A DNA stretch of 17,828 bases from a virus (IMGVR_UViG_2563366803_000003); one strand, 5' to 3'. Shown: positions 1,237 to 17,828, counted from the first letter of the stretch. Translations and numbers: made by a program. The notes: generated by a model from the sequence alone, not told the origin.

Positions 1237-1419
1237 AGTTACCAGTCTCATAGGAGCGGACAATTTTCCGTTAGGGCGGTAAATTGTACTTTGATACATG
1301 AAAATACGGGTTTTCTTGATTCAGACGCGCAGCGGTGTGCGTTTGTTTGCCGCTATAGCGAAATAAATCAGAAAATCAGACGCGGTCGTTCACTTGTTCA
1401 GCAACCAGATCAAAAGCCA

Positions 1420-1447
1420 TTGACTCAGCAAGGGTTGACCGTATAAT
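1420..1447 (+). promoter_or_regulatory. Probable sigma70 promoter of argU: -35 TTGACT (1420-1425), 16-bp spacer, -10 TATAAT (1442-1447)
   Basis: Near-consensus hexamers about 30 nt upstream of the tRNA 5' end. Confidence 0.6.
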
Positions 1448-1478
1448 TCATGCGATTACACCGCATTGCGGTATCAAC

Positions 1479-1555
1479 GCGCCCTTAGCTCAGTTGGATA
1501 GAGCAACGACCTTCTAAGTCGTGGGCCGCAGGTTCGAATCCTGCAGGGCGCGCCA
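1479..1555 (+). tRNA. argU: tRNA-Arg (anticodon UCU), 77 nt, ends CCA
   Basis: Cloverleaf sequence GCGCCCTTAGCTCAGTTGGATAGAGCAACGACCTTCTAAGTCGTGGGCCGCAGGTTCGAATCCTGCAGGGCGCGCCA; anticodon loop CT-TCT-AA; known DLP12 attachment tRNA. Confidence 0.95.
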
Positions 1556-1570
1556 TTACAATTCAATCAG

Positions 1571-2734
1571 TTACGCCTTCTTTATATCCTCCATAATTCC
1601 AGAGTGGGACATATTTGGGACATTATCACCAAAAATGTCGTCTATTTTCCTCGCATGCTCTGTCAAATGATTAGGCGCAAGGTGAGCATACCTACGAACC
1701 ATTTCTATGGACTCCCATCCGCCCATTTCCTGAAGCACTGATAATGGGACGCCTGACTGAATCAGCCAGCTTGCCCAGGTGTGTCTGAGGTCATGGAAAC
1801 GGAAATCTTCAATTCCTGCACGACGACAAGCTGATAGCCATGATGTCTTGCTGTCGATGCGCATCTTCCTGACCGCAGGCGTTGATGTTCCATCTGCTCG
1901 CTTAGCCGCCTTGGTATGTACAAACACCCATTTGTGATGCTTGCCTATTTGATCACGCAACACTTTACAGGCGGTATCGTTCAGCGCCACACCAATGGCG
2001 CGGTTTGATTTGCTCTCTTCTGGATTCACCCAGGCAACTCGTCGCTGCATGTCGATTTGTTGCCATTCCAGATTTATGATGTTCGACTTTCTCAGACCAG
2101 TTGCCAGCGCAAACTTGACGACAGATTTCAGTGGTTCGGGGCACTCATCAATAAGGCGTTTTGCTTCCTCCTTTTCCAGCCATCTGACTCGCTTGTTTCT
2201 GACCGCTGGTATCTTGATGACAGGCGCTTTTTCCAGCCACTTCCAGTCGCGTTCTGCAGCACGGAGAATGGCCTTTATCATGGCAAGATGCTTTGCCTTT
2301 GTCTGAGTTGATACTGGCTTTGGTTCATAAACAGGCAGTTCTTTACCTTTCCTGATGGCGGCCTGAACTTTCTGTTTCCATATTTCTTTCGTCTTTCTGT
2401 TATGCATTCTGCTTACAGCAGAGTAAATCTTTGCCTCCGAGATATCTTTAAGCCTTATACCCTCAAAATGTTCAAGCCAGAACTCAATCCGGCTTTTATC
2501 TGAATCGAGAGATTTTTTATCAGCTTTTTCCTCAAGCCATCTTAGGCAGGCCTCTTCAAAAGTGACATCAGGTAAATCCCCTAGCTTTTCTACTCGCCAG
2601 AGTTCTGCTTTTCGCTTGTCGTGCAACTCCTGAGCTTGCCGCTTGTCCTTTGTGCCAAGAGATTCCTTAATTCGTTTCCCGCCCGGGAGCGAATACGAGG
2701 CATACCATATTTCATTTCTGCGGAAGAGTGACAT
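1571..2734 (-). CDS. intD: Prophage tyrosine integrase (DLP12 IntD-like, 387 aa)
   Basis: C-terminal catalytic region with [10 protein letters not shown]... and ...VRRYAHL motifs (R-H-R-Y family); positioned 16 nt from the 3' end of argU. Confidence 0.93.
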
Positions 2735-2961
2735 TTTCTTTCCTCTGTTATGCCATCACCCGCGCTCACCTGGACAGTATGCAGCGGAGACTGAAGCGCC
2801 GCAATGCAGGCTTGCCGTGTTGTGAGGTAAGGAGATTTTGGCTTGGTTGGATCTTTACGTGTTGCCTGTAGGCGGCCTGTTCGTATCCAGTTGGTGGCGG
2901 TTGGTCTGGATATCTTAAGAAACTGACAGGCCTCATCGAGTGTGAGGCTGTATGATTCCAT
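2590..2961 (-). CDS. xis: Excisionase-like HTH protein (Xis), about 123 aa, overlapping the 5' end of int in another frame
   Basis: Start ATG at 2961 preceded by GAGGT SD; N-terminal [29 protein letters not shown] typical of excisionase/AlpA-type proteins; position upstream of int. Confidence 0.6.
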
Positions 2962-3211
2962 GGTTACCTCTGCTTTTTGAACGCATGTCACGTAACTTCT
3001 TAATGTGTTCTGCCGTTTCGATCTCTTCTGCTATCCGATCTGCATCAGCTTTATTCACAGGTTCAAAGTCATGATTAAAGCGGAACATGCTGGCGATACA
3101 TGTTCTGCCTTTTCGGATGTAGTGAACTTTGTTGTGGGTAGAACGCAGGATTTTGCAGGGAGTGCCGTGGTGGTCGACGTACCAGGTGTTAGGAAAAATG
3201 ATTCTGAACAT
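2933..3211 (-). CDS. Small Cys/His-containing phage protein (92 aa), possibly lambda Ea8.5-like by size and position next to xis
   Basis: ORF with GAGGTG SD 6 nt upstream of ATG at 3211; contains HH..C...H..H...C pattern; lambda Ea8.5 is 93 aa and lies next to xis. Confidence 0.4.
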   Translation of the reverse strand: MFRIIFPNTWYVDHHGTPCKILRSTHNKVHYIRKGRTCIASMFRFNHDFEPVNKADADRIAEEIETAEHIKKLRDMRSKSRGNHGIIQPHTR

Positions 3212-3258
3212 TTTTACACCTCAGTTGGACGATGTTGAAATTTGCTGCTTTGAGGCCA

Positions 3259-3477
3259 TCACAGTCCCCATTGTTTGTTCTTAAGTTCGATCTCCTCCTG
3301 GCAACTTGCACAAGTCCGACAACCCTGAACAGCCAGGCGTCTTCGCTCATCTATCGGATCGCCACACTCACAACAATGAGTTGCGGATACAGTCTGGTAG
3401 TTCTGACGACGCATTTTTATTGCTGTATTGCGCTGTAATTCTTCGATTTCTGATGCTGAATCAATGATGTCTGCCAT
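3259..3477 (-). CDS. TraR/DksA-family C4 zinc-finger protein (72 aa)
   Basis: CxxC-x17-CxxC signature (CCECGDPIDERRRLAVQGCRTCASC) typical of phage TraR/DksA-like proteins. Confidence 0.65.
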   Translation of the reverse strand: MADIIDSASEIEELQRNTAIKMRRQNYQTVSATHCCECGDPIDERRRLAVQGCRTCASCQEEIELKNKQWGL

Positions 3478-3529
3478 CTTCCATTAATCCCTGAATTGTT
3501 GGTTAATACGCTTGAGGATGAATGCGAAT

Positions 3530-3556
3530 AATAAAAAAGGAGCCTGTAGCTCCCTG
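3530..3556 (-). terminator. Possible rho-independent terminator (short GC stem ggagc/gctcc followed by T6 on minus strand)
   Basis: Hairpin 3539-3553 with A-tract 3533-3538 on + strand (= T-tract on minus), 20 nt downstream of the 3576 stop. Confidence 0.35.
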
Positions 3557-3575
3557 ATGATTTTGCTTTTCATGT

Positions 3576-3857
3576 TCATCGCTCCTTAAAGACGCCGTTT
3601 AACATGCCGATCGCCAGACTTAAATGAGTCGGTGTGAATCCCATCAGCGTTACCGTTTCGCGGTGCTTCTTCAGTACGCTACGGCAAATGTCATCGACGT
3701 TTTTATCCGGAAACTGCTGTCTGGCTTTTTTGATTTCAGAGTTAGCCTGACGGGCAATGCTGCGAAGGGCGTTTTCTTGCTGAGGTGTCATTGAACAAGT
3801 CCCATGTCGGCAAGCATAAGCACACAGAATATGAAGCCCGCTGCCAGAAAAATGCAT
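3576..3857 (-). CDS. Hypothetical lambdoid b-region protein (93 aa; alternative start at 3791 gives 72 aa)
   Basis: ORF in the minus-strand early-left gene string between xis and exo; no recognisable motif. Confidence 0.4.
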   Translation of the reverse strand: MHFSGSGLHILCAYACRHGTCSMTPQQENALRSIARQANSEIKKARQQFPDKNVDDICRSVLKKHRETVTLMGFTPTHLSLAIGMLNGVFKER

Positions 3858-3867
3858 TCAGTGGTTG

Positions 3868-4059
3868 TCATACCTGGTCTCTCTCATCTGCTTCTGCTTT
3901 CGCCACCATCATTTCCAGCTTTTGTGAAAAGGATGCGGCTAACGTATGAAATTCTTCGTCTGTTTCTACTGGTATTGGCACAAACCTGACTCCAATTTGA
4001 GCGAGGCTATGTGCCATCTCGATACTCGTTCTTAACTCAACGGGAGATGCTTTGTGCAT
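3868..4059 (-). CDS. Small lambdoid early protein, 63 aa (lambda orf63-like by size and position)
   Basis: GGGAG SD upstream of ATG at 4059; same orientation and tight packing with exo-proximal genes. Confidence 0.45.
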   Translation of the reverse strand: MHKASPVELRTSIEMAHSLAQIGVRFVPIPVETDEEFHTLAASFSQKLEMMVAKAEADERDQV

Positions 4060-4220
4060 ACAGCTCCCCGTTTATTATTTATCTCCTCAGCCAGCCGCTG
4101 TGCTTTCAGTGGATTTCTGATAACAGAAAGGCCGGGAAATACCCAGCCTCGCTTTGTAATGGAGTAGACGAAAGTGATCGCGCCTACCCGGATATTATCG
4201 TGAGGATGCGTCATCGCCAT
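4032..4220 (-). CDS. Small lambdoid early protein, 62 aa (lambda orf60a-like by position immediately upstream of exo)
   Basis: ORF overlapping exo start region; GGGGAG upstream of ATG at 4220. Confidence 0.45.
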
Positions 4221-4891
4221 TGCTCCCCAAATACAAAACCAATTTCAGCCAGTGCCTCGTCCATTTTTTCGATGAACTCCGGCACCATCTCGTCAAAACT
4301 CGCCATGTACTTTTCATTCCGCTCAATCACGACATAATGCAGGCCTTCACGCTTCATGCGCGGGTCATAGTTGGCAAAGTACCAGGCATCTTTTCGCGTC
4401 ACCCACATGCTGTACTGCACCTGGGCCATGTAAGCCGATTTTATTGCCTCGAAACCACCGAGCCGGAATTTCATGAAATCCCGGGAGGTAAACGGGCATT
4501 TCAGTTCAAGGCCGTTGCCGTCACTGCATAAACCATCGGGAGAGCAGGCGGTGCGCATACTTTCGTCGCGATAGATGATCGGGGATTCAGCAATATTCAC
4601 GCCGGAAGTGAATTCAAACAGGGTTCTGGCGTCGTTCTCGTACTGTTTTCCCCAGGCCAGCGCCTTAGCATTAACTTCCGGAGCCACACCGGTGCAAACC
4701 TCAGCCAGCAGGGTGTGGAAGTAGGACATTTTCATGTCAGGCCACTTCTTTCCTGAGCGGGGCTTTGCTATCACGTTGTGAACTTCTGAAGCGGTGATGA
4801 CGCCGAGCCGTAATTTGTGCCATGCATCATCCCCCTGTTCGACAGCTCTCACGTCGATCCCGGTACGCTGCAGGATAATGTCCGGTATCAT
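4211..4891 (-). CDS. exo: Lambda-type 5'-3' exonuclease Exo (Red-alpha), 226 aa
   Basis: Translation [65 protein letters not shown]... is near-identical to lambda Exo as recalled; same length. Confidence 0.95.
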
Positions 4892-5673
4892 GCTGCCACC
4901 TTCTGCTCAGTGGCTTTCTGTTTCAGGAATCCAAGAGCTTTCACTGCTTCGGCCTGTGTCATTTCTGACGATGCGCGAATGTCGCGGCGAAATATCTGGG
5001 AACAGAGCGGCAATAAGTCGTCATCCCATGTTTTATCCAGGGCGATCAGCAGAGTGTTAATCTCCTGCATGGTTTCATCGTTAACCGGAGTGATGTCGCG
5101 TTCTGGCTGACGTTCTGCAGTGTATGCAGTATTTTCGACAATGCGCTCGGCTTCATCCTTGTCATAGATACCAGCAAATCCGAAGGCCAGACGGGCACAC
5201 TGAATCATTGTTTTATGCCGTAACATCCGTTTGGGATGCGACTGCCACGGCCCCGTGATTTCTCTGCCTTCGCGGGTTTTGAATGGTTCGCGGCGGCATT
5301 CATCCATCCATTCGGTAACGCAGATCGGATGATTACGGTCCTTGCGGTAAATCCGGCATGTACAGGATTCATTGTCCTGCTCAAAGTCCATGCCATCAAA
5401 CTGCTGGTTTTCATTGATGATGCGGGACCAGCCATCAACGCCCACCACCGGAACAATGCCGTTCTGCTTATCAGGGAAGGCGTAAATTTCTTTCGTCCAC
5501 GGATTAAGGCCGTACTGGTTGGCGACGATCAACAATGCGATGAACTGCGCATCGCTGGCATCACCTTTAAATGCCGTCTGGCGAAGAGTGGTGATCAGTT
5601 CCTGTGGGTCGACAGAATCCATGCCGACACGTTCAGCCAGCTTCCCTGCCAGCGTTGCGAGTGCTGTACTCAT
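4888..5673 (-). CDS. bet: Lambda-type single-strand annealing protein Bet (Red-beta), 261 aa
   Basis: Translation [66 protein letters not shown]... matches lambda Bet; ATGA overlap with exo as in lambda. Confidence 0.95.
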
Positions 5674-5678
5674 CCGTT

Positions 5679-5975
5679 TTATACCTCTGAATCAATATCA
5701 ACCTGGTGGTGAGCAATGGTTTCAACCATGTACCGGATGTGTTCTGCCATGCGCTCCTGAAACTCAACATCGTCATCAAACGCACGGGTAATGGCTTTTT
5801 TGCTGGCCCCGCAGCGTTGCAAATGATCGATGCAGAGTGATTCAAACAGGTGCTGTGGAAGACCTTTTTCCATGTCGTCTGCCAGTTCTGACTCTTTCTC
5901 TTCACGGGCGATCTGCTGGTAGTGACGTGCCCAGCTCAGACCCTCAAGACGATCCTGAATGTAATAAGCGTTCAT
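5679..5975 (-). CDS. gam: Lambda Gam (RecBCD inhibitor), 98-aa GamS-length form
   Basis: Translation [56 protein letters not shown]... matches lambda Gam. Confidence 0.93.
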
Positions 5976-6050
5976 GGCTGAACTCCTGAAAATGGCTGTG
6001 AAAATATCGCCCGCGAAATGCCAGGCTGATTAGGAAAACAGGAAAGGGGA

Positions 6051-6257
6051 TTAGTGATTCAGGCCATTACCGCGTCCGTCGAAAAAAACTTCCACGAGCA
6101 AATCACGGGTATAAGTGCGCTCGATGCCGCGATGCAGATATAGCCGTCCGCGTAAATTAGCTGATGCAGTCCAGGTACCATCTTTGTGTTTGACCAGCAT
6201 TCCTGGCATGACCGCACCTCGATTAACGGTCTGCGTTCCGTAATGTTGATGAACCAT
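6051..6257 (-). CDS. Small early-left protein (68 aa from ATG at 6257 with AGGAG SD), possibly Kil-like host division inhibitor by position next to gam; in-frame upstream extension to 6461 is Arg-rich
   Basis: Strong SD (AGGAGTTTTT-ATG) at the internal start; first ORF downstream of the predicted pL; function assigned by synteny only. Confidence 0.4.
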
Positions 6258-6529
6258 AAAAACTCCTGCCCGTAAGCTGGGCTGCTGAACATATAGAGAC
6301 TTCTGCGCGTATTCAGGCGGTGGATGGCCGCCGGTTGTCATAACTAAGCCGCCTCGTTGAAGCGACTGAGGTATGAGGTGTTGAGTTGATTTCAGCTGGT
6401 CACACCGACGTTCACGCGTCCGTTTCACCCCTCGCACTCCCCGGAGCCTGCCGAAATTCAAGCTGCGGATCTAAGCGGTCATCGCAACGGTGAATCAGGT
6501 GGTTGCCGTATCGTTGTGTTGTTGCGACA

Positions 6530-6600
6530 TGGTGATAATAGCTATTGCTATTGGTGGTATCAATACTTATTGCTATTGATTGATGTGTTTTGATATTAAC
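6530..6600 (-). promoter_or_regulatory. Predicted pL/oL: minus-strand -35 TTGATA (+ coords 6558-6563) and -10 TATTAT (6535-6540) with 17-bp spacer, overlapped by repeated GCTATTG operator-like motifs
   Basis: Hexamers and spacing read directly; motif TTGCTATTG (6545-6553, 6570-6578) is shared with the cI-cro intergenic region. Confidence 0.4.
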
Positions 6601-6712
6601 TGTTTGATAGCAAAAAGAATTAATTTTGTGACTTGCATCGCATAGCGATAACTGAAGGGAGGTTGTGGTGGTTTTTCGAACGGTTTGTGTGATGAGGGGA
6701 GGGGACAAAAGA

Positions 6713-6745
6713 AAACCCGGCACGGTGGCCGGGACGTTTTATTTC
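6713..6745. terminator. Bidirectional rho-independent terminator (stem cccggc...gccggg, flanked by T-runs on both strands); likely end of the cI operon (tImm-like)
   Basis: aaaacccggcacggtggccgggacgttttatttc immediately after the stop of the 6739-7251 gene. Confidence 0.65.
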
Positions 6746-7251
6746 AAAGAAAAATTATGACTAGCGTATCTTGGAAGAAATTCATATAGTGTTAATGTCT
6801 TAACGCCGTGAGAAGCAGCAGCATCCGGGATCATTATTCTTTTTTTAGGTTTGCCACCGGATGGTTTCTCATGGGTAATAATAGTATATCCATGTGTCAT
6901 CGCATGGGCTATTAAAAAAGCATCTGCTTTTTCATGGCTTGCAAAATCAAACTTTGCCTTTTCGGTAACATCTAATTTAGTTGACCAATTTATTAACTTT
7001 GCATAATTTTCTATTGAACTATGCTCATCTTCGAAGAATGATGATGGTAACTCTTCTTTAATCCATTTACACAATGGATCATCTTTTGCACATAGTTCTT
7101 TTTTTACAGCATTAATGCTATAAATCAGACCATTCATGTGTAAAGCGAGAAGAAAATCCCAAAATATTTTGCAATAATTGAAGTTATATGCAAAGTTTTT
7201 TGCCTCTATGAAGACATTACTATCAATTAAGAATTTTCCATTATGAATCAT
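6739..7251 (-). CDS. DUF4411-type PIN-like putative nuclease (170 aa); candidate effector of a two-gene defense/toxin module
   Basis: Size, N-terminal FLIDSNVFI strand with conserved Asp and later acidic residues fit a PIN-like fold; ATGA start/stop overlap with upstream metallopeptidase gene; AT-rich composition. Confidence 0.6.
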   Translation of the reverse strand: MIHNGKFLIDSNVFIEAKNFAYNFNYCKIFWDFLLALHMNGLIYSINAVKKELCAKDDPLCKWIKEELPSSFFEDEHSSIENYAKLINWSTKLDVTEKAKFDFASHEKADAFLIAHAMTHGYTIITHEKPSGGKPKKRIMIPDAAASHGVKTLTLYEFLPRYASHNFSLK

Positions 7252-8387
7252 AGAGATTCTCGTTTTTTATAAAATTCAACAACTGTATCTGCTTTTACAT
7301 TTAGCAGTACGCCTGCTTCCCTTAATGGTAATTGTTGAGACATTGCTTTGGAAATTATTATATTCGTAAGTTTTGGACTGTTACGAACAGGTAATGTGTT
7401 AAAGAAAGAACCACCATTAGATTCTTTTTTGGGCTTATTGTAAGCTTGATCTTTAATTATCTCCAAAGTGTTTCTTTCTATCAAATCTAATTGTAACGCT
7501 TTGATTGCACAAGCGAAATCACTAACCTTAAATAACTTAGAAACCTCTTTTACTCGATAATAATTATTATCGCTGGATGCATTAAGCCAGAAAGATTTGA
7601 AGAGATTATCAGGCATTAAGATTTCAGCAGCAACTTTATTACAAAAAGATTCTATGTTTTTTTCTGTGTCCCACCCAGAGACTCCATCGACTCCAAGCCA
7701 AAGATGAGCCACCTCATGAAATAATGTAAATACCTGCGCAGATAACGCGTCCGAGCTATTTACAAAAATGATCGGAGCAACGCTATCAGATATACAGAAA
7801 CCACGAAACTCTCGCGTGTCAAGTTTTCTTTTATTATTATTACCCACAACACCATTCTTGAAAACTAATACGCCAGTGTCTTCTATTAGTTTTGCCACTT
7901 TAGAAAAATAGCTCTCAAAAGTGACATTTTTTATCTCTTTTTGTATATCAAAATGTATTGTGTTTGCTATGTCTGTAGCAACAACCTTATAATTTAATTT
8001 TCTATTAAATTTAAATTTACCAATAAAATCGAGTGGATCATCATTACCATTTTCTCTTAAATAGTCTTTGTACCACTCAAGTTTATATTCTATATCATAG
8101 TAAACATCAAAAAAATCTTTTCCTAACTCACGGCTATTTATAGCTTGCCTTAAGTCAGGGATCTTGGGTTTGGCTGGAGTTGGTGGCGTTTCAAGAAATA
8201 AAAAACCGAAAGGGATTCCTCCAATTTTTGCCAGTTTTTCTGCTGCGGATTTACTTACCACTCCGTTAAGAAATTTATTAATCTTTTTGGGCATGACTTG
8301 GTCAGCAAGAGTTTCGATAGAAACTCCTTGAGAATTTGCTATCCAATCAATCATCTTCCTAGACAATTGAAATTCAACCGCTGCCAT
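7248..8387 (-). CDS. HTH + ImmA/IrrE-family (COG2856/M78-like) zinc metallopeptidase, 379 aa
   Basis: HExxH motif in FTLFHEVAHLWLG; N-terminal HTH-like segment (IDWIANSQGVSIETLADQV); AGGTGA SD upstream of ATG at 8387; translationally coupled to DUF4411 gene. Confidence 0.7.
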   Translation of the reverse strand: MAAVEFQLSRKMIDWIANSQGVSIETLADQVMPKKINKFLNGVVSKSAAEKLAKIGGIPFGFLFLETPPTPAKPKIPDLRQAINSRELGKDFFDVYYDIEYKLEWYKDYLRENGNDDPLDFIGKFKFNRKLNYKVVATDIANTIHFDIQKEIKNVTFESYFSKVAKLIEDTGVLVFKNGVVGNNNKRKLDTREFRGFCISDSVAPIIFVNSSDALSAQVFTLFHEVAHLWLGVDGVSGWDTEKNIESFCNKVAAEILMPDNLFKSFWLNASSDNNYYRVKEVSKLFKVSDFACAIKALQLDLIERNTLEIIKDQAYNKPKKESNGGSFFNTLPVRNSPKLTNIIISKAMSQQLPLREAGVLLNVKADTVVEFYKKRESL

Positions 8388-8516
8388 GTTATCACCTAGT
8401 TAAAAAAAACTATTATTCAACAATTATTGTTGTGCACCTGATAGCTAACGTCAAGCCTAATTTATTGCCTTACTACAGTAAGCTGAAAAGCGAAGTGCAT
8501 AATTTTGTTCTGATTT

Positions 8517-9209
8517 CTACCCATGCTTTCTATATGTCTGCGGCATGCTCCCGATGACTTTCCCGAAGATGAACACGCGGTTCATCTCGTCTTTCTCGAT
8601 CGGGTCCCACGGTGAGTAGCTCTTGTTATCAGAGATAACCAGCAGCTTATCCTTCATCATTTGCAGGCGCTTTACATGGGCGGTGTCGTCATACAGAAAC
8701 GCATAGATACCATCACCGTCGAAAGATTTAACAGTGATATCAACGAACAGAAGATCACCTGGTTCGATCGTTCCTGACATGCTGTCACCGCGTACGTTAA
8801 TGATGCGGATATTTTCTGCCTTCCTGCCATCGAACATGTGACGAGCATCGTCAAACGAGTACTCAACCGAGCGTAGAACTTCTACAAACTCACGGTTGAT
8901 GACTCCCGGCCCGGCACTCACTTCTATATCAAGAACGTCAATCTTGAAGTATTTGGGATGGTTGGCAGTAGGCTTCCCTAATTGTTGACCGTCATTTCTC
9001 ATCGGGCCTATGCCTGATGAGAGCCACTCTGTTCGAACACCCAATGCATTAGCTATTTCAACAATTTTTGTTGAGCCGCGCGCGTTGCCGCTTGTCAGTC
9101 TCCAGATTGTGGGTTGAGCTACCCCAGACGCCTTTGCAAGAGCGCCTTGAGACATTCCAGATTGTTCCATCGCTAGGTTTAAGCGATCAGCAAGAGTTTC
9201 TTTTTTCAT
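8517..9209 (-). CDS. cI: cI-type prophage repressor (N-terminal XRE HTH + C-terminal S24/LexA-like autopeptidase), about 230 aa, leaderless
   Basis: HTH segment LADRLNLAMEQSGMSQGALAKASGVAQPTIWRL; S24 peptidase signature around GDSMSGTIEPGDLLFVD with downstream Lys (HVKRL); ATG at 9209 lies 7 nt after a -10 hexamer. Confidence 0.85.
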   Translation of the reverse strand: MKKETLADRLNLAMEQSGMSQGALAKASGVAQPTIWRLTSGNARGSTKIVEIANALGVRTEWLSSGIGPMRNDGQQLGKPTANHPKYFKIDVLDIEVSAGPGVINREFVEVLRSVEYSFDDARHMFDGRKAENIRIINVRGDSMSGTIEPGDLLFVDITVKSFDGDGIYAFLYDDTAHVKRLQMMKDKLLVISDNKSYSPWDPIEKDEMNRVFIFGKVIGSMPQTYRKHG

Positions 9210-9319
9210 AAGTTTTAATTTATACGCTTGCGTATTGATGGTCAAAACACGTTTTGCTATTGTTATGATTAATACGCATTGCTATTATTTATTCATTGCA
9301 ATACCAATAGGAATTGATA
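9210..9319. promoter_or_regulatory. Divergent immunity control region. Predicted pRM on minus strand (-35 TTGACC at + 9240-9245, -10 TAAATT at 9217-9222, leaderless cI) and pR on plus strand (-35 TTGTTA 9260-9265, -10 TATTAT 9283-9288); operator-like repeats TTGCTATT and palindromes
   Basis: Hexamers and 17-bp spacings read directly; motif shared with 6540-6580. Confidence 0.5.
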
Positions 9320-9547
9320 ATGACAAATCAAACCATTCAACTCGCAATCAGTATTACAGGTAGTCAAAAACGACTGGCAGATCTATGCGGTGTAGCCCAA
9401 CCCACTGTTTGGCGTTGGCTACACGGTGGCGGAATTGATGCCCGCTATGTAATGAAAATTGTCTCAGCCACTGGTGGAAAGATTAAACCAGCAGATATTC
9501 GTCCCGACCTCGCACCATTGTTTAACGCGAGTAATTCTGCCGCCTAA
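9320..9547 (+). CDS. cro: Cro-like HTH regulator of the YdaS family (about 75 aa)
   Basis: HTH segment GSQKRLADLCGVAQPTVWRWL; AGGAA SD 6 nt upstream of ATG 9320; divergent from cI. Confidence 0.7.
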   Translation: MTNQTIQLAISITGSQKRLADLCGVAQPTVWRWLHGGGIDARYVMKIVSATGGKIKPADIRPDLAPLFNASNSAA

Positions 9548-9571
9548 ACTGCGGCGTTAACTGATAAGGCA

Positions 9572-10117
9572 ATGACTATGCAACCACTTACATACCAACA
9601 GACTAGCGGATTTAGCCCGACTGTGGTGATAAATCGTTCTCAAACAAAACAAGCTCCAGGCCACGAAAAAATCCGTGATGCCGTCCGCGCCTGGTCGGCT
9701 GCAGATAATCAGGATGTTGTTGCCGCACTCATTGTGAATGAGTATCGGGAGCAGGGCGGCGGCACCATCGATTTCCCTGATGATGTCAGCCGTGCACGCC
9801 AGAAGCTGTTCCGCTTCCTCGATAACAAATTCGATTCTGAAAAATACCGAAATAACGTGCGTGAACTGACCCCGGCAATTCTGGCGGTACTACCGCTGGA
9901 ATATCGCGGTTACCTGGTTGAGCAGGATAGCTTTATGGCTAGGTTGGCTGAAATGGAAAAGGAACTCAGTGAGGCAAAACAGGCTGTCATTCTCAACGCA
10001 CCACGCCACCAGAAACTGAAGGAGATGAGTGAAGGCATTGTGTCGATGTTTCGAGTGGACCCGGATCTGGCTGGTCCATTGATGGCGATGGTCACCACCA
10101 TGCTGGGGGCAATATGA
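9572..10117 (+). CDS. YdaT-family protein (181 aa), occupying the cII position
   Basis: Recalled resemblance (..EYREQGGG.., ..LTPAILAVLP..) to Rac YdaT-type proteins; always paired with YdaS-type cro; position between cro and O. Confidence 0.5.
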   Translation: MTMQPLTYQQTSGFSPTVVINRSQTKQAPGHEKIRDAVRAWSAADNQDVVAALIVNEYREQGGGTIDFPDDVSRARQKLFRFLDNKFDSEKYRNNVRELTPAILAVLPLEYRGYLVEQDSFMARLAEMEKELSEAKQAVILNAPRHQKLKEMSEGIVSMFRVDPDLAGPLMAMVTTMLGAI

Positions 10118-10203
10118 CAGGTTCAAAAATGGCGAAAGTCGGTCTGCGGGAACAGAACCGACTTTCAGGTGCAAATCGTAACACACTCATTGCGGGAGGA
10201 ATT

Positions 10204-11133
10204 ATGGCAAACACTGCTGAGATATTCAATTTTCCAGTGCCGGATGCGGCACAAAAGGAGCCGCGCGTGGCAGATCTCGATGATGGTTATACGCGCATTG
10301 CAAATGAGTTGCTGGAAGCTGTGATGCTGGCCGGATTAACACAGCACCAGCTTCTGGTCTTCCTGGCTGTCATGCGCAAAACATATGGCTTTAATAAAAA
10401 ACTGGATTGGGTGAGCAACGAGCAACTTTCCGAGTTGACCGGGATATTGCCGCACAAGTGTTCTGCTGCAAAAAGTGTTCTGGTAAAGCGTGGGATTTTT
10501 ATTCAGAGCGGGCGGAATATCGGCATCAATAATGTGGTCAGTGAATGGTCAACATTACCCGAATCGGGTAAGAAAAATAAAGTTTACCTGAAAGAGGTAA
10601 ATTTACCTGAATCAGGTAAGAAAAGTTTACCTAAATCAGGTAAAGGCGTTTACCCGAATCAGGTAAACACAAAAGACAAACTAACAAAAGACAATATAAA
10701 ACCTTTATCGTCCGAGAATTCTGGCGAATCCTCTGACCAGCCAGAAAACGATCTTCCTGTGGTGAAACCGGATGCTGCAATTCAGAGCGGCAGCAAGTGG
10801 GGGACAGCAGAAGACCTGACCGCCGCAGAGTGGATGTTTGACATGGTGAAGACCATCGCGCCATCAGCCAGAAAACCGAATTTTGCAGGGTGGGCTAACG
10901 ATATCCGCCTGATGCGTGAACGTGATGGACGTAACCACCGCGACATGTGCGTGCTGTTCCGCTGGGCATGCCAGGACAACTTCTGGTCCGGTAACGTGCT
11001 GAGTCCGGCTAAACTCCGCGACAAGTGGACCCAGCTCGAAATCAACCGTAACAAGCAACAGGCTGGCGTGACAGCCAGAAAACCAAAACTCGACCTGACA
11101 AACACTGACTGGATTTACGGGGTGGATTTATGA
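10204..11133 (+). CDS. O: Lambda O-type replication initiator (about 309 aa from ATG 10204 with GGGAGG SD)
   Basis: N-terminus MANTAEIFNFP...VADLDDGYTRIANELLEAV...LLVFLAVMRKTYGFNK resembles lambda O N-terminal domain; internal iteron array. Confidence 0.85.
   Translation: MANTAEIFNFPVPDAAQKEPRVADLDDGYTRIANELLEAVMLAGLTQHQLLVFLAVMRKTYGFNKKLDWVSNEQLSELTGILPHKCSAAKSVLVKRGIFIQSGRNIGINNVVSEWSTLPESGKKNKVYLKEVNLPESGKKSLPKSGKGVYPNQVNTKDKLTKDNIKPLSSENSGESSDQPENDLPVVKPDAAIQSGSKWGTAEDLTAAEWMFDMVKTIAPSARKPNFAGWANDIRLMRERDGRNHRDMCVLFRWACQDNFWSGNVLSPAKLRDKWTQLEINRNKQQAGVTARKPKLDLTNTDWIYGVDL
10555..10710 (+). repeat. Phage origin of replication: five 17-bp palindromic iterons TTACC(C/T)GAATC(A/G)GGTAA (10555-10571, 10584-10600, 10603-10619, 10627-10643, 10649-10665) followed by an A-rich tract
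   Basis: Direct repeats read in sequence inside the O gene, as in ori-lambda. Confidence 0.8.
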
Positions 11134-11831
11134 AAAACATCGCCGCACAGATGGTTAACTTTGACCGTGAGCAGATGCGTCGGATCGCCAACAACATGCC
11201 GGAACAGTACGACGAAAAGCCGCAGGTACAGCAGGTAGCGCAGATCATCAACGGTGTGTTCAGCCAGTTACTGGCAACTTTCCCGGCGAGCCTGGCTAAC
11301 CGTGACCAGAATGAACTGAACGAAATCCGCCGCCAGTGGGTTCTGGCTTTCCGGGAAAACGGGATCACCACAATGGAACAGGTTAACGCTGGAATGCGCG
11401 TAGCCCGTCGGCAGAATCGACCATTCCTGCCATCACCCGGGCAGTTTGTCGCCTGGTGCCGGGAAGAAGCATCTGTTAACGCCGGGCTGCCAAACGTCAG
11501 CGAGCTGGTTGATATGGTTTACGAGTATTGCCGGAAGCGTGGCCTGTATCCGGATGCAGAGTCTTATCCGTGGAAATCGAACGCGCATTACTGGTTGGTT
11601 ACCAACTTGTACCAGAACATGCGGGCCAATGCGCTGACTGACGCGGAATTACGGCGCAAGGCTGCCGATGAACTGACCTGTATGACAGCGCGAATTAACC
11701 GTGGTGAGACGATACCTGAACCAGTAAAACAACTTCCTGTTATGGGCGGTAGACCTCTAAATCGTGCACAGGCTCTGGCGAAGATCGCAGAAATTAAAGC
11801 TAAGTTCGGACTGAAAGGAGCAATTGTATGA
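11130..11831 (+). CDS. P: Lambda P-type replication protein (DnaB helicase loader), 233 aa
   Basis: Translation MKNIAAQMVNFDREQMRRIANNMPEQYDEKPQVQQVAQIINGVFSQLLATFPASLANRDQNELNEIRRQW... matches lambda P; ATGA overlap with O. Confidence 0.95.
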   Translation: MKNIAAQMVNFDREQMRRIANNMPEQYDEKPQVQQVAQIINGVFSQLLATFPASLANRDQNELNEIRRQWVLAFRENGITTMEQVNAGMRVARRQNRPFLPSPGQFVAWCREEASVNAGLPNVSELVDMVYEYCRKRGLYPDAESYPWKSNAHYWLVTNLYQNMRANALTDAELRRKAADELTCMTARINRGETIPEPVKQLPVMGGRPLNRAQALAKIAEIKAKFGLKGAIV

Positions 11832-12130
11832 CGGGCAAAGAGGCAATTATTCATTACCTGGGGACGCATAAGAGCTTCTGTGCACAGGACGTTGCCGCGG
11901 TAACAGGCGCAACCGTAACCAGCATAAATCAGGCTGCGGCTAAAATGGCGCGGGCAGGAATCCTGGTCGTTGATGGTAAGGTCTGGCGAACGGTGTATTA
12001 CCGGTTCGCTACCAGAGAAGAACGGGAAGGAAAGGTGAGCACGAATCTGATTTTTAAGGAGTGTCGCCAGAGTGCCGCGATGAAACGGGTATTGAGGGTA
12101 TATAAAAGAACATCAATGGGAACACAATGA
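11828..12130 (+). CDS. ren: Ren (Rex exclusion-escape protein), 100 aa
   Basis: Translation MTGKEAIIHYLGTH.SFCA.DVAA.TGATVTSINQAAAKMARAG... matches lambda Ren; ATGA overlap with P. Confidence 0.9.
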   Translation: MTGKEAIIHYLGTHKSFCAQDVAAVTGATVTSINQAAAKMARAGILVVDGKVWRTVYYRFATREEREGKVSTNLIFKECRQSAAMKRVLRVYKRTSMGTQ

Positions 12131-12197
12131 TGAAACAGGTGAGTTGAGTTCAAACTGTAGTACAATTCTCTCCAGTTTGAACAGGAAAGAATATGCT

Positions 12198-12530
12198 ATG
12201 AACCCTTATATTTATCTTGGTGGTGCAATACTTGCAGAGGTCATTGGTACAACCTTAATGAAGTTTTCAGAAGGTTTTACACGGTTATGGCCATCTGTTG
12301 GTACAATTATTTGTTATTGTGCATCATTCTGGTTATTAGCTCAGACGCTGGCTTATATTCCTACAGGGATTGCTTATGCTATCTGGTCAGGAGTCGGTAT
12401 TGTCCTGATTAGTTTACTGTCATGGGGATTTTTCGGCCAACGGCTGGACCTGCCAGCCATTATAGGCATGATGTTGATTTGTGCCGGTGTGTTGGTTATT
12501 AATTTATTGTCACGAAGCACACCACATTAA
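12198..12530 (+). CDS. emrE: EmrE small multidrug-resistance efflux transporter, 110 aa (prophage moron)
   Basis: Translation MNPYIYLGGAILAEVIGTTLMKFSEGFTRLWPSVGTIICYCASFWLLAQTLAYIPTGIAYAIWSGVGIVLISLLSWGFFGQRLDLPAIIGMMLICAGVL... matches EmrE; AGGAAAG SD. Confidence 0.95.
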   Translation: MNPYIYLGGAILAEVIGTTLMKFSEGFTRLWPSVGTIICYCASFWLLAQTLAYIPTGIAYAIWSGVGIVLISLLSWGFFGQRLDLPAIIGMMLICAGVLVINLLSRSTPH

Positions 12531-12550
12531 AATAATTTGTTTCTAAACGA

Positions 12551-12590
12551 CTAAAATATGGAGGCTCTTATATTTATATGAGCCTCGTTT
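12551..12590 (+). terminator. Rho-independent terminator downstream of emrE (stem gaggctc...gagcctc followed by T-rich tract)
   Basis: Hairpin 12551-12576, T-run 12577-12590. Confidence 0.7.
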
Positions 12591-12784
12591 TATGCTTTTT
12601 GTTAATGTCTTTATTTTTTATGTATTCTTTTGTGCTTTCAAGATTATGGCGTAAGAAAATTGCAATACGATTATTGTTGTATATTCAAGATAATGTGACC
12701 TTAATTGTCTTTTTAAATAAAAATTAAACAAAAATTATATCCCACCACTAAGGTTTATAAAAGCATACGTTAGCAGGTGTCACC

Positions 12785-13624
12785 ATGAAAAAAGCCATAG
12801 CATATATGCGATTTTCATCACCAGGTCAGATGTCTGGTGACTCATTAAACCGACAGAGAAGACTTATTGCTGAATGGTTAAAGGTAAATAGTGATTATTA
12901 TCTTGATACCATAACATATGAAGATTTAGGATTAAGTGCATTCAAAGGAAAGCATGCACAATCAGGAGCTTTTTCGGAATTTTTAGATGCTATAGAGCAT
13001 GGTTATATATTGCCAGGAACTACATTGTTAGTTGAAAGTCTGGACAGACTTTCAAGAGAAAAAGTCGGTGAAGCGATTGAACGTCTGAAATTGATTTTGA
13101 ATCACGGTATTGATGTTATAACTCTTTGCGACAATACAGTCTATAATATTGACTCTTTGAATGAGCCATATTCATTAATAAAAGCCATACTTATAGCACA
13201 AAGGGCAAATGAAGAAAGCGAGATAAAGTCAAGTCGGGTTAAATTATCATGGAAGAAAAAACGGCAGGATGCAATGGAATCAGGTACGATTATGACGGCG
13301 TCTTGTCCGAGATGGCTCTCCTTAGATGACAAAAGAACGGCTTTTGTTCCAGACCCCGACAGGGTGAAAACTATTGAGCTAATTTTTAAACTCAGGATGG
13401 AAAGGCGCTCATTGAATGCAATAGCCAAGTATTTAAATGATCATGCTGTAAAGAATTTCTCAGGAAAAGAAAGTGCATGGGGACCTTCTGTAATTGAAAA
13501 ATTATTAGCGAATAAAGCTCTGATAGGTATATGCGTACCTTCATATCGTGCAAGAGGGAAAGGGATAAGTGAAATCGCTGGCTATTATCCCAGAGTTATA
13601 TCAGATGATTTGTTTTACGCTGTA
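12785..13624 (+). pseudogene. ybcK: ybcK-like serine recombinase, truncated after about 280 codons by IS1
   Basis: N-terminal resolvase-type catalytic domain (AIAYMRFSSPGQMSGDSLNRQRR... with catalytic Ser), reading frame runs into IS1 left terminus at 13625. Confidence 0.8.
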
Positions 13625-13639
13625 GGTAATGACTCCAAC

Positions 13640-14143
13640 TTATTGATAGTGTTTTATGTTCAGATAATGCCCGATGACTTTGTCATGCAGCTCCACCGAT
13701 TTTGAAAACGACAGCGACTTCCGTCCCAGCCGTGCCAGGTGCTGCCTCAGATTCAGGTTATGCCGCTCAATTCGCTGCGTATATCGCTTGCTGATTACGT
13801 GCAGCTTTCCCTTCAGGCGGGATTCATACAGCGGCCAGCCATCCGTCATCCATATCACCACGTCAAAGGGTGACAGCAGGCTCATAAGACGCCCCAGCGT
13901 CGCCATAGTGCGTTCACCGAATACGTGCGCAACAACCGTCTTCCGGAGACTGTCATACGCGTAAAACAGCCAGCGCTGGCGCGATTTAGCCCCGACATAG
14001 CCCCACTGTTCGTCCATTTCCGCGCAGACGATGACGTCACTGCCCGGCTGTATGCGCGAGGTTACCGACTGCGGCCTGAGTTTTTTAAGTGACGTAAAAT
14101 CGTGTTGAGGCCAACGCCCATAATGCGGGCTGTTGCCCGGCAT
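13640..14143 (-). CDS. insB: IS1 InsB (the longer 194-aa ORF in the track is the out-of-frame upstream extension used for InsAB' frameshifting)
   Basis: Same frame and sequence as copy A InsB, with one amino-acid difference (H vs R). Confidence 0.93.
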
Positions 14144-14337
14144 CCAACGCCATTCATGGCCATATCTATGATTTTCTGGTGCGTACCGGGTTGAGAAGCG
14201 GTGTAAGTGAACTGCAGTTGCCATGTTTTACGGCAGTGAGAGCAGAGATAGCGCTGATGTCCGGCGGTGCTTTTGCCGTTACGCACCACCCCGTCAGTAG
14301 CTGAACAGGAGGGACAGCTGATAGAAACAGAAGCCAC
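14062..14337 (-). CDS. insA: IS1 InsA
   Basis: Identical protein to copy A InsA. Confidence 0.95.
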
Positions 14338-14392
14338 TGGAGCACCTCAAAAACACCATCATACACTAAATCAGTAAGTTGGCAGCATCACC

Positions 14393-14734: not shown

Positions 14735-15118
14735 ATGCGTGATATTCAGATGGTTCTTGAGCGTTGGGGAGCGTGGGCGGCTAATAATCATGAAGATGTG
14801 ACCTGGTCGTCCATTGCCGCCGGTTTTAAGGGATTAATTCCTTCAAAAGTAAAATCTCGCCCGCAATGTTGTGACGATGACGCGATGATCATTTGCGGGT
14901 GCATGGCCCGTCTGAAAAAGAACAACAGCGATTTGCACGATTTATTAGTAGATTATTATGTAGTCGGTATGACATTCATGTCACTGGCAGGTAAGCATTG
15001 CTGCTCTGATGGTTATATCGGGAAAAGGTTACAAAAGGCTGAGGGCATAATTGAAGGGATGTTAATGGCATTAGATATCCGGTTAGAGATGGATATCGTT
15101 GTTAATAACTCTAATTAA
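14735..15118 (+). CDS. quuD: Late-gene antiterminator Q (QuuD-like), 127 aa
   Basis: Translation [24 protein letters not shown]...[16 protein letters not shown]... with Cys-rich zinc-binding motif; GGAG SD 7 nt upstream. Confidence 0.85.
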
Positions 15119-15306: not shown

Positions 15307-16389
15307 TTAGAACTGGTAAACCATACCTACAGCAACGATATCATCGGTAGCAACGCCAGATGCTTTCGTGAAATCGCTCTTATCAATCAGGTTGATTTTG
15401 TAGTCAACAAAAGTGGACATATTTTTGTTGAAGTAATAGGTTGCACCTACATCAACATATTCAACCAGGTCCTGATCACCCCAAACACCCAAGTCTTTTC
15501 CTTTAGAATGCAGGTAAGCAACGGATGGACGCAGGCCGAAGTCGAACTGATATTGTGCAACAGCTTCGAAGTTTTGTGCTTTGTTGGCAATATGGTTATT
15601 ACCAAAAACAGTCATGTTCTGGGTTTCAGAATAGGTGGTGGCCAGATAGATGTTGTTCGCATCATATTTCAGACCAGCTGCCCATACTTCAGCATTTTGA
15701 CCAGAAGCATTCAGACCGTTGTTACCGTAGATAACCTGATTATTAGTGCGATCAGATTTAGCATAGGTTGCACCTACACCGAATCCTTCATACTCATAAG
15801 TAGTGGAGAAACCGAAACCATCACCATTAGCTTCAGTTACGTCAGTGCGGTCATTTTTACCCTGATACTGAGCAGCAAAGTTCAGACCATCAACCAGACC
15901 AAAGAAGTCGTTGTTACGATAAGTTGCAACACCAGTGGTGCGACCAGTCATGAACACATCTGTTTGAGTCCAAGTGTCACCACCGAATTCTGGCAGGACG
16001 TCAGTCCACGCACCGATGTCGTATGCTACACCGTAGTTACGGCCGTAATCGATGGAGCCGTAGTCACCGAATTTCAGGCCAGCGAAGGCAAGACGGGTTT
16101 TATCTTTGGAGGAACCTTGAGATTCAGCGCGGTTGCCTTTGAATTCATATTCCCACTGACCGAAACCAGTCAGTTGATCGTTGATTTGGGTTTCACCTTT
16201 GAAGCCAAGACGGGCATAAGTAGTATCACCATCATCTGCATCATTAGAGGAGAAGTAGTGCTTAGCATTAACTTTCCCGTACAGATCCAGCTTGTTACTG
16301 TCTTTATTATAAATTTCAGCTGCCTGAGCAGACATCGCCATCAGTACTGATGCAGCTACAGCAGAAATTGCCACTGTTAATTTTTTCAT
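15307..16389 (-). CDS. nmpC: Outer-membrane general porin of the NmpC/OmpD/OmpC family, intact (360 aa with signal peptide)
   Basis: Signal peptide [23 protein letters not shown], beta-barrel porin sequence ending ...VGMVYQF; opposite orientation to the phage late genes (moron). Confidence 0.9.
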
Positions 16390-16978: not shown

Positions 16979-17194
16979 ATGAAATCCATGGATAAGTTAA
17001 CAACGGGTGTCGCCTATGGCACCTCAGCAGGTAGTGCCGGTTACTGGTTTTTACAGCTGCTCGATAAAGTCACGCCCTCACAGTGGGCAGCAATAGGTGT
17101 GCTGGGTAGCCTGGTATTTGGCCTGCTGACGTACCTGACAAACCTTTATTTCAAGATTAAAGAAGATAAGCGCAAGGCTGCGAGAGGTGAATAA
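16979..17194 (+). CDS. essD: Class II holin / pinholin of the S21 family (71 aa) with dual-start motif MKSMDK
   Basis: Translation [71 protein letters not shown]; two TM segments; stop overlaps endolysin start (TAATG). Confidence 0.85.
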
Positions 17195-17599
17195 TGCCTC
17201 CATCATTACGAAAAGCCGTTGCTGCTGCTATTGGTGGCGGAGCAATTGCTATAGCATCAGTGTTAATCACTGGCCCAAGTGGTAACGATGGTCTGGAAGG
17301 TGTCAGCTACATACCATACAAAGATATTGTTGGTGTATGGACCGTATGTCACGGGCATACAGGAAAAGACATCATGCTCGGTAAAACGTATACCAAAGCA
17401 GAATGCAAAGCACTCTTGAATAAAGACCTTGCCACTGTCGCCAGACAAATTAACCCATACATCGAAGTCGATATACCGGAAACAACGCGCGGCGCTCTTT
17501 ACTCATTCGTTTACAACGTGGGTGCTGGCAATTTCAGAACATCGACGCTTCTTCGCAAAATAAACCAGGGCGATATCAAAGGCGCATGTGATCAGTTAC
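17194..17599 (+). pseudogene. rrrD: SAR-endolysin (RrrD/R21-like lysozyme) truncated near codon 135 by IS2 insertion
   Basis: N-terminal signal-anchor-release segment [20 protein letters not shown]; lysozyme core; frame continues into the IS2 terminus giving a chimeric tail [16 protein letters not shown]. Confidence 0.8.
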
Positions 17600-17828
17600 T
17601 AGACTGGCCCCCTGAATCTCCAGACAACCAATATCACTTATTTAAGTGATAGTCTTAATACTAGTTTTTAGACTAGTCATTGGAGAACAGATGATTGATG
17701 TCTTAGGGCCGGAGAAACGCAGACGGCGTACCACACAGGAAAAGATCGCAATTGTTCAGCAGAGCTTTGAACCGGGGATGACGGTCTCCCTCGTTGCCCG
17801 GCAACATGGTGTAGCAGCCAGCCAGTTA
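17600..17828 (+). mobile_element. IS2 (IS3 family), terminal part only; continues beyond window
   Basis: Terminus tagactggccccctgaatctccagacaaccaatatcacttaa and downstream orfA (insC) start match IS2 as recalled. Confidence 0.85.
17691..17828 (+). CDS. insC: IS2 OrfA (InsC) transposase N-terminal part, partial at window end
   Basis: Translation [46 protein letters not shown]. Confidence 0.85.

Follow-up and report, generated by a model that had tools for sequence, protein, structure and literature searches.

The prophage DLP12 of Escherichia coli K-12 is annotated as starting within the tRNA gene argU. In the annotated MG1655 region it comprises intD, the pseudogenes xisD, exoD and peaD, a renD gene split by the insertion sequence (IS) IS3, and emrE, in agreement with what the initial annotation of the DNA described here stated for K-12. 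Phages are documented to exchange DNA with defective prophages, DLP12 included, through Red (PMC3945230). A second relative, the 49.7 kb phage PhiR68_2 (PV340576), has been used as a plaque-forming temperate phage (bioRxiv 10.1101/2025.11.03.685801); PhiR34_1, PhiR30_1, 4A7 and Lambda_4C10 are its relatives. Phage lambda (NC_001416) is the reference for the Red recombination genes exo, bet and gam. Here these systems are compared with a stretch of viral DNA, IMGVR_UViG_2563366803_000003, which contains a DLP12-like early region with a complete lambda-type Red module. The window is the whole stretch, 17,828 nucleotides of one strand; the feature under study lies at 1571-12530, and all coordinates are those of the whole window.

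The element was analysed by open reading frame (ORF) listing, a tRNA search, Pfam and PHROG domain scans, and BLAST and tblastn, each window protein being compared with lambda by tblastn. Very likely the window contains the left half of a lambdoid prophage of the DLP12 type, inserted at argU, and represents the lineage of K-12 DLP12 at a time when less of the early region had decayed. In this reading an intact early region sits in an element that is defective as a whole, and the Red functions are latent and dependent on induction. The prophage type itself is ordinary and already documented.

The early region and its K-12 counterpart

Two properties place the element, as judged from its sequence, with the DLP12 type. 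The first is integration at the 3′ end of argU next to an IntD-type integrase gene. The tRNA-Arg(UCU) gene argU (1479-1555, plus strand) was identified by ARAGORN, by the Rfam tRNA model and by the K-12 annotation, and its 3′ part serves as attL, the attachment site of the prophage. The adjacent intD (1571-2734, minus strand) encodes a tyrosine integrase of 387 amino acids with a Pfam Phage_integrase domain and 99.7% amino acid identity to both K-12 IntD and the PhiR68_2 integrase. The second property is the gene set and order ren-emrE-ybcK…quuD-nmpC-essD-rrrD, established by BLAST and tblastn against K-12 562500-580000; cargo and late-control genes follow one another in the K-12 element as they do here.

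K-12 DLP12 corresponds to the window sequence minus two clean deletions and with IS3 added in ren. BLAST against the same K-12 interval, together with inspection of the junctions, fixes the endpoints. K-12 lacks 2830-4186 (1357 bp), which starts within xis and extends through the end of orf60a, and 4491-11521 (7031 bp), from inside exo to inside the replication gene P. Each deletion junction has a 2-bp TA microhomology, and IS3 is found in K-12 ren at ~11917. The K-12 counterpart of xis is the pseudogene xisD, which holds the C-terminal part only, and peaD consists of the last 103 codons of P. The pieces that K-12 retains are nearly identical to those of the window: 99.7% for 753-2829, 100% for 4185-4490, 99.5% for 11520-11918 and 99.5% for 11917-13624. 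The initial annotation had proposed a less decayed relative of the DLP12 ancestor and an alignment with the K-12 argU-intD-emrE region; that alignment bears the proposal out. Among 5426 complete E. coli genomes, in which presence was taken as coverage of at least 80%, the segment across both K-12 junctions is present in at most 321.

The left endpoints of both K-12 deletions fall directly after the hexamer GAGGTA, within GTGAGGTA and GGGAGGTA, at the junctions 2828-2829/4185-4186 and 4489-4490/11520-11521. The shared GAGGTA/TA may be a coincidence or may point to a common mechanism.

The same arrangement could have arisen if a PhiR68_2-like phage carrying DLP12 modules had lysogenised argU independently and more recently, in which case the window would not show an ancestor-like state. 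Phages that share this integrase and gene order and are viable do circulate. Moreover, the element is partly mosaic, since identity to K-12 falls rightward from 99.5-100% in the early segments to 98.3% in rusA′-quuD and then to 92% in nmpC-rrrD, so that at least part of it has a different history. With 91% identity to K-12 NmpC and 98.6% to the porin of PhiR68_2, nmpC shows that the history of nmpC-rrrD differs from that of the early region. Against independent entry, the early segments shared with K-12 are closer to it than the window is to any complete-genome prophage or phage found, the best of these being STEC1588 (97.8%) and PhiR68_2 (98.0-98.4%). In addition, simple deletions from the window arrangement explain both K-12 junctions exactly. 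Such a separate entry is therefore considered unlikely, and common descent with K-12 DLP12 is preferred.

The Red genes gam, bet and exo are adjacent and co-oriented on the minus strand, in a leftward operon downstream of a putative pL promoter. They encode a RecBCD inhibitor of 98 amino acids (gam, 5679-5975; Pfam Gam, positions 1-98 of 98), a single-strand annealing protein of 261 amino acids (bet, 4888-5673; Pfam RecT) and a lambda-type 5′-3′ exonuclease of 226 amino acids (exo, 4211-4891; Pfam YqaJ). All three had been called full length and close to lambda, and this was confirmed by ungapped tblastn alignments over 226/226 residues of Exo, 261/261 of Bet and 98/98 of Gam, with 97.3%, 98.9% and 93.9% amino acid identity, respectively, the last to the matching part of lambda Gam. 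As homology to lambda is full length and uninterrupted by frameshifts or stops, the module is predicted to be a complete Red system. Exo differs from its lambda counterpart by T2I, V100I, T101A, N168D, D192N and I202M, Bet by A155T, L238M and A255T, and Gam by six substitutions. The Exo differences avoid Asp119, Glu129 and Lys131, the catalytic residues in the structures of lambda Exo, and these residues are retained. Gene order and the exo/bet overlap are as in lambda. Lambda gam, however, is annotated at 138 amino acids; stop codons precede the 98-amino-acid frame of the window, and therefore only a Gam of the short GamS length is encoded.

The replication genes are on the plus strand. The initiator O (10114-11133, 339 amino acids; Pfam Phage_rep_O) is 67% identical to lambda O overall by tblastn, with an N-terminal DNA-binding part that differs from that of lambda. 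Within O, a repeat finder detected a replication origin (10555-10700, plus strand) with five palindromic iterons TTACCYGAAWCRGGTAA at 10555, 10584, 10603, 10627 and 10650 (span 10555-10666), followed by an A-rich tract. The lambda origin likewise has iterons and an A-rich tract inside O, but the iterons number four and are of a different sequence. P (11130-11831, 233 amino acids; Pfam Phage_lambda_P) follows and is 97.4% identical to lambda P over 233/233 residues. With its own iteron origin and AT-rich tract in O and with P next to it, the module is of the lambda replication type. Next to P, ren (11828-12130, 100 amino acids; PHROG 142) is uninterrupted, with 90% amino acid identity to lambda Ren and 100% to that of PhiR68_2.

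From int to rrrD, gene order in PhiR68_2 is that of the window, and every window protein aligns over its full length, with 95-100% amino acid identity. The early genes align to this phage end to end without gaps, and exact alignments of the early genes revealed no frameshifts or premature stops. The early region is thus without recognisable defect, given its colinear, full-length match to a plaque-forming phage. The cI, cro-like, O (with origin) and P genes reported initially are all present, at full length relative to the viable phage and with the expected Pfam domains. Immunity region, pL leader and type of origin are shared by the two elements. PhiR68_2 differs in having two other genes in the cargo slot, complete ybcK-rusA and lysis genes, and no IS elements. 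The draft E. coli genome GCA_000408585.1 (scaffold KE137162.1) is 100% identical to the window across 15,044 bp. A Shigella source, to which the many IS1 copies might have pointed, was rejected in view of this match.

The whole early region (1400-12600) is present in 85 of the 5426 complete genomes. The exo-bet-gam segment alone is present in 3137 (58%), mostly at 95-99% identity, and a chromosomal lambda-type Red module is thus the rule in E. coli. Because a colinear plaque-forming phage exists and because both the early region and the Red segment recur in complete genomes, the feature is not novel.

The remaining genes of the leftward early region are all on the minus strand. The xis excisionase gene (2590-2961, 123 amino acids) is complete and matches PHROG 2907 at positions 2-117 of 117; its DNA (2560-3000) is 100% identical to that of PhiR68_2. 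It is followed by a DUF4222 gene (2933-3211) and a TraR/DksA zinc finger gene (3259-3477), both found by Pfam, and by an orf61-like gene (3576-3857), orf63/DUF1382 (3868-4059; Pfam) and orf60a/DUF1317 (4032-4220; Pfam). The last three products have 94-100% amino acid identity to their lambda and PhiR68_2 counterparts by tblastn. Small early-left genes are also called in GCA_000408585.1. Upstream of gam, a KilR-type cell-division inhibitor of 68 amino acids (6051-6257) is recognised by PHROG 294 (Kil), by Pfam KilR on the identical GCA_000408585.1 product and by the RefSeq annotation in STEC1588; it has no homology to lambda kil. A longer ORF of 136 amino acids over the same segment (6051-6461), whose arginine-rich start (KRTRERR) made it an N-like candidate, was rejected as a gene start since it begins with TTG without a Shine-Dalgarno sequence. 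In this ORF the PHROG and Pfam match to Kil is confined to the 77 C-terminal residues, and the 68-amino-acid start is preceded by a strong AGGAG.

Immunity region and cargo cassette

Closeness to lambda is limited to orf61-orf63-orf60a-exo-bet-gam, P, ren and the C-terminal part of O; it does not extend to the immunity region. The cI gene (8517-9245, minus strand) encodes a repressor with a helix-turn-helix (HTH) and an S24 self-cleaving domain (Pfam HTH_3 and Peptidase_S24), 97.5% identical in amino acids to PhiR68_2 cI; its start is probably the ATG at 9209, which gives 230 amino acids. Divergent from it is a cro-like repressor of the YdaS family (9314/9320-9547, plus strand, 75-77 amino acids; Pfam YdaS_toxin, E 1e-14; PHROG 35). 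The cII position is occupied by a YdaT-domain protein (9572/9578-10117, plus strand, 179-181 amino acids; Pfam YdaT_toxin), which matches PHROG 163, termed 'CII-like transcriptional activator', over 1-168 of 168 positions. A tblastn search of the whole window with lambda N, cII, cIII, kil, ea10, ral, sieB, rexA/B, cI, cro, xis, int, Q and ninB gave no significant match. The immunity specificity is predicted to be different from that of lambda.

Repeated palindromes are found at both ends of the immunity region. A promoter scan yielded a putative pL (6563-6535, minus strand; TTGATA-17-TATTAT), and two operator-like palindromes, AATAGC-N4-GCTATT, at 6537-6552 and 6562-6577 overlap it. The putative right operator (OR) region (9246-9315) has three operator-like sites, at 9246, 9271 and 9300, with divergent promoter-like hexamers for cro/pR (9260-9288, plus strand) and cI (9245-9217, minus strand). 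When one mismatch is allowed, CAATAGCAAT has 8 matches in the window against 2.06 expected, and 7 of the 8 lie in two patches of 40-60 bp, at 6538-6578 and 9253-9314. The best sites are those at 6537 (perfect), 6562, 9271, 9246 and 9300. With a spacing of 25-29 bp, these sites cover parts of the best sigma-70-like −35/−10 hexamers of pL and pR. Divergent cI and cro genes with repeated putative operators at pL and pR are what a lambdoid immunity region would be expected to have. Because the palindromes overlap the pL and pR hexamers, we infer a standard lambdoid switch, by which the lysogen would keep Red, kil, int/xis and O/P unexpressed.

A course of events can be proposed on this basis. In the lysogen, cI bound to the AATAGC-N4-GCTATT operators over pL and pR would silence Red, kil, int/xis and O/P, and cI itself and the genes behind it would be expressed. 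DNA damage would lead to RecA-stimulated self-cleavage of cI and derepression of pL. A burst of Gam, Exo and Bet would follow, for RecBCD inhibition, 5′ resection and annealing, respectively, and the same induction would bring on Kil, the excision functions and O/P replication. Red should therefore be a latent, induction-dependent capacity of the cell and not a standing host recombination system. According to the initial annotation, the host gains a chromosomal Red recombination system from the prophage; the module is indeed complete, but the supply would be only potential, as the promoter lies under putative cI operators and should be silent in the lysogen.

The genes behind cI form a cassette of ~33% GC (6734-8520), which lies between the cI stop codon and an intrinsic terminator found by a terminator scan (6716-6733, minus strand). 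The terminator ends the cI-cargo operon, is equivalent to lambda tIMM and forms the left boundary of an exchangeable cargo slot, and the cassette occupies the position of lambda rexAB. The first gene (7248-8387, minus strand) encodes a protein of 379 amino acids with an HTH and an ImmA/IrrE (M78) metallopeptidase domain (Pfam Peptidase_M78, residues 169-291) that contains an HEVAH motif, a predicted antitoxin or sensor with the HTH, M78 and HExxH combination of Rosmer-like systems. The second (6739-7251, minus strand) encodes a DUF4411 PIN-like protein of 170 amino acids (Pfam DUF4411, E 1e-37), a predicted toxin or nuclease. As in Rosmer-like or HTH-DUF955 and PIN modules, the fused HTH-M78 gene is directly upstream of the DUF4411 gene and overlaps it. 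The pair differs from such modules in its location, the operon of a lambdoid prophage repressor.

Pairs of an HTH-ImmA and a PIN protein were predicted as toxin-antitoxin systems by Matelska (2017; PMC5499597), the toxin role being a prediction there, and the pair type falls in the ImmA/Rosmer zone of Ernits (2023; PMC10440598). PADLOC gave weak RmrA (E 6e-8 to 1e-3) and CapP matches for the peptidase, and no PADLOC 2.0 model matches the DUF4411 protein. In the Protein Data Bank, 9vzy is a complex of a homologous HTH protein (chain A) and a DUF4411 protein, and 9vzz also contains DUF4411. The cassette is probably a lysogen-expressed defence or addiction module of this known kind. Homology to PhiR68_2 breaks exactly at 6733|8521, the pair is present in 33 of the 5426 genomes, always at 99% identity or more, and it is horizontally acquired. 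Other candidate cargo of this slot, taken from the annotations of related phages and DLP12-like prophages, comprises DUF7946, RexA, a Ser/Thr kinase and a HipA kinase with DUF3037.

Insertion sequences and the right part of the element

Intactness is confined to the early region; beyond it the element is damaged by an IS1-linked deletion and by IS2. To the right of ren, emrE (12198-12530, plus strand) is a prophage cargo gene for an SMR efflux transporter of 110 amino acids (Pfam Multi_Drug_Res; 98% amino acid identity to K-12 EmrE). The serine recombinase gene ybcK (12785-13624, plus strand), identified by Pfam, tblastn and its junctions, is cut after codon 280 by a complete IS1 of 768 bp (13625-14392, minus strand). 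This IS1 was delimited by its junction sequences and by BLAST against K-12, and it replaces the equivalent of 3872 bp of K-12: the 3′ end of ybcK, ybcL, ybcM, ylcH, ybcN, ninE, ybcO and the 5′ part of rusA. A 3′ remnant of rusA and then ylcG lie between IS1 and quuD.

The late antiterminator Q gene quuD (14735-15118, plus strand, 127 amino acids; Pfam Phage_antitermQ) is intact and 98.5% identical to K-12 QuuD in amino acids, and the porin gene nmpC (15307-16389, minus strand, 360 amino acids) is intact as well. The holin gene essD (16979-17194, plus strand) was recognised by tblastn and Pfam. The endolysin gene rrrD (17194-17595, plus strand) is cut after codon 138, its last 27 codons having been lost to IS2, with a junction near 17596-17600; IS2 runs to the end of the window. 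In GCA_000408585.1, an insert of ~2 kb replaces ~215 bp at this place, with the 3′ end of rrrD and the 5′ end of Rz, and beyond it are bor, nu1, a full-length A (641 amino acids) and W. The lesions of the two DLP12 elements thus differ: those of K-12 are the two deletions, IS3 in ren and IS5, which splits nmpC, whereas those of the window are IS1 with the ybcK′-′rusA deletion and IS2 in rrrD.

Neither a complete lysis cassette nor an unbroken chain from early to late genes is present, as an intact plaque-forming prophage would have. Lysis is very probably lost because IS2 truncates rrrD and, in the identical genome, the Rz 5′ end is missing. Normal phage release appears unlikely, and IS1 may have a polar effect on Q. 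The head and tail genes are located beyond the window.

The intact early region, colinear with that of viable PhiR68_2, the intact Q, and the nu1, terminase A and W genes of the identical draft genome speak for a temperate phage that is inducible, fully functional and tolerant of its IS elements. Deletions of nin are viable in lambda, so that this segment is dispensable, and late transcription could read through IS2. However, the endolysin without its last 27 codons, the replacement across rrrD and Rz, and an IS1 that is likely polar between the replication genes and Q make it very improbable that the element is such a phage. The defective DLP12-type prophage described above remains the preferred reading.

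A second IS1, cut by the window start (1-752), is a repeat of 13625-14392 and is inserted in fimZ; it disrupts this fimbrial regulator gene, the C-terminal part of which is gone from the ORF. The two IS1 copies are in direct orientation, are ~99.6% identical and bracket 12.9 kb with fimZ′, argU and the early region with Red and emrE. Recombination between them would delete argU and the early region, and the pair is also laid out as a composite transposon. A close relative, GCA_964051545.1 (3687-5603), has an extra IS1 within the ImmA/IrrE gene and an intact rrrD-Rz. This pattern indicates that IS accumulation in the element is ongoing and strain-specific.

Predicted latency of Red and its meaning

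Several points weigh against the reading of the window as a less decayed DLP12 with a latent Red module. Besides the divergent nmpC-rrrD segment, the operators, the promoters and the inducibility of cI rest on motifs and family membership, and the Rz truncation and the genes further right are known from the identical draft genome and not from the window. An N-type antiterminator with nut or put RNA downstream of pL was not found, lambda N being the only antiterminator query. ORFs in 5976-6738 have no PHROG or Pfam match to N, and an Rfam scan across the whole window matched the tRNA alone, with no known regulatory RNA, put-like or other. Terminator-like hairpins at 6108-6092 and 6026-6009 lie between pL and gam.

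A leader of ~270 nucleotides separates the putative pL from kil, and the same arrangement is seen in viable relatives. A put-type antiterminator RNA was considered and dropped, as the 273-nucleotide pL leader is no more stable than shuffled sequences (z = −0.01). The stretch from gam to the terminator, with the leader, is covered to at least 80% in 15 phage records, viable ones included. Since viable phages share the leader, the absence of a recognised antiterminator characterises the whole family and does not reflect damage.

A domesticated Red, expressed as a host recombination or repair system without prophage induction, might be suggested by genes without visible decay inside an element unable to complete a lytic cycle, but it is barely credible, as the sole upstream promoter-like site is overlapped by repressor-type operators, cI is intact, and the near-identical module of the 3137 genomes, mostly in ordinary prophages, explains its integrity by recent phage origin.

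A narrower role, though still improbable, would be that of a domesticated, damage-inducible burst of Gam, Exo and Bet, which would raise recombination between short or diverged homologies in surviving cells without the cost of lysis. The idea follows from a broken lysis cassette next to an intact, SOS-inducible early region. If true, the burst could rescue or reshuffle other prophages, as with lambda Red and DLP12 (PMC3945230).

GenBank already contains colinear viable phages, most E. coli genomes carry the module, and the element raises no new question. It is chiefly useful as a clean reference against which to read the decay of K-12 DLP12, in which two deletions at 2-bp microhomologies removed 8.4 kb comprising xis, Red, immunity and replication. 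A latent lambda-type Red module in many natural E. coli strains can matter for the background of recombineering, for prophage mosaicism and for the engineering of wild isolates.

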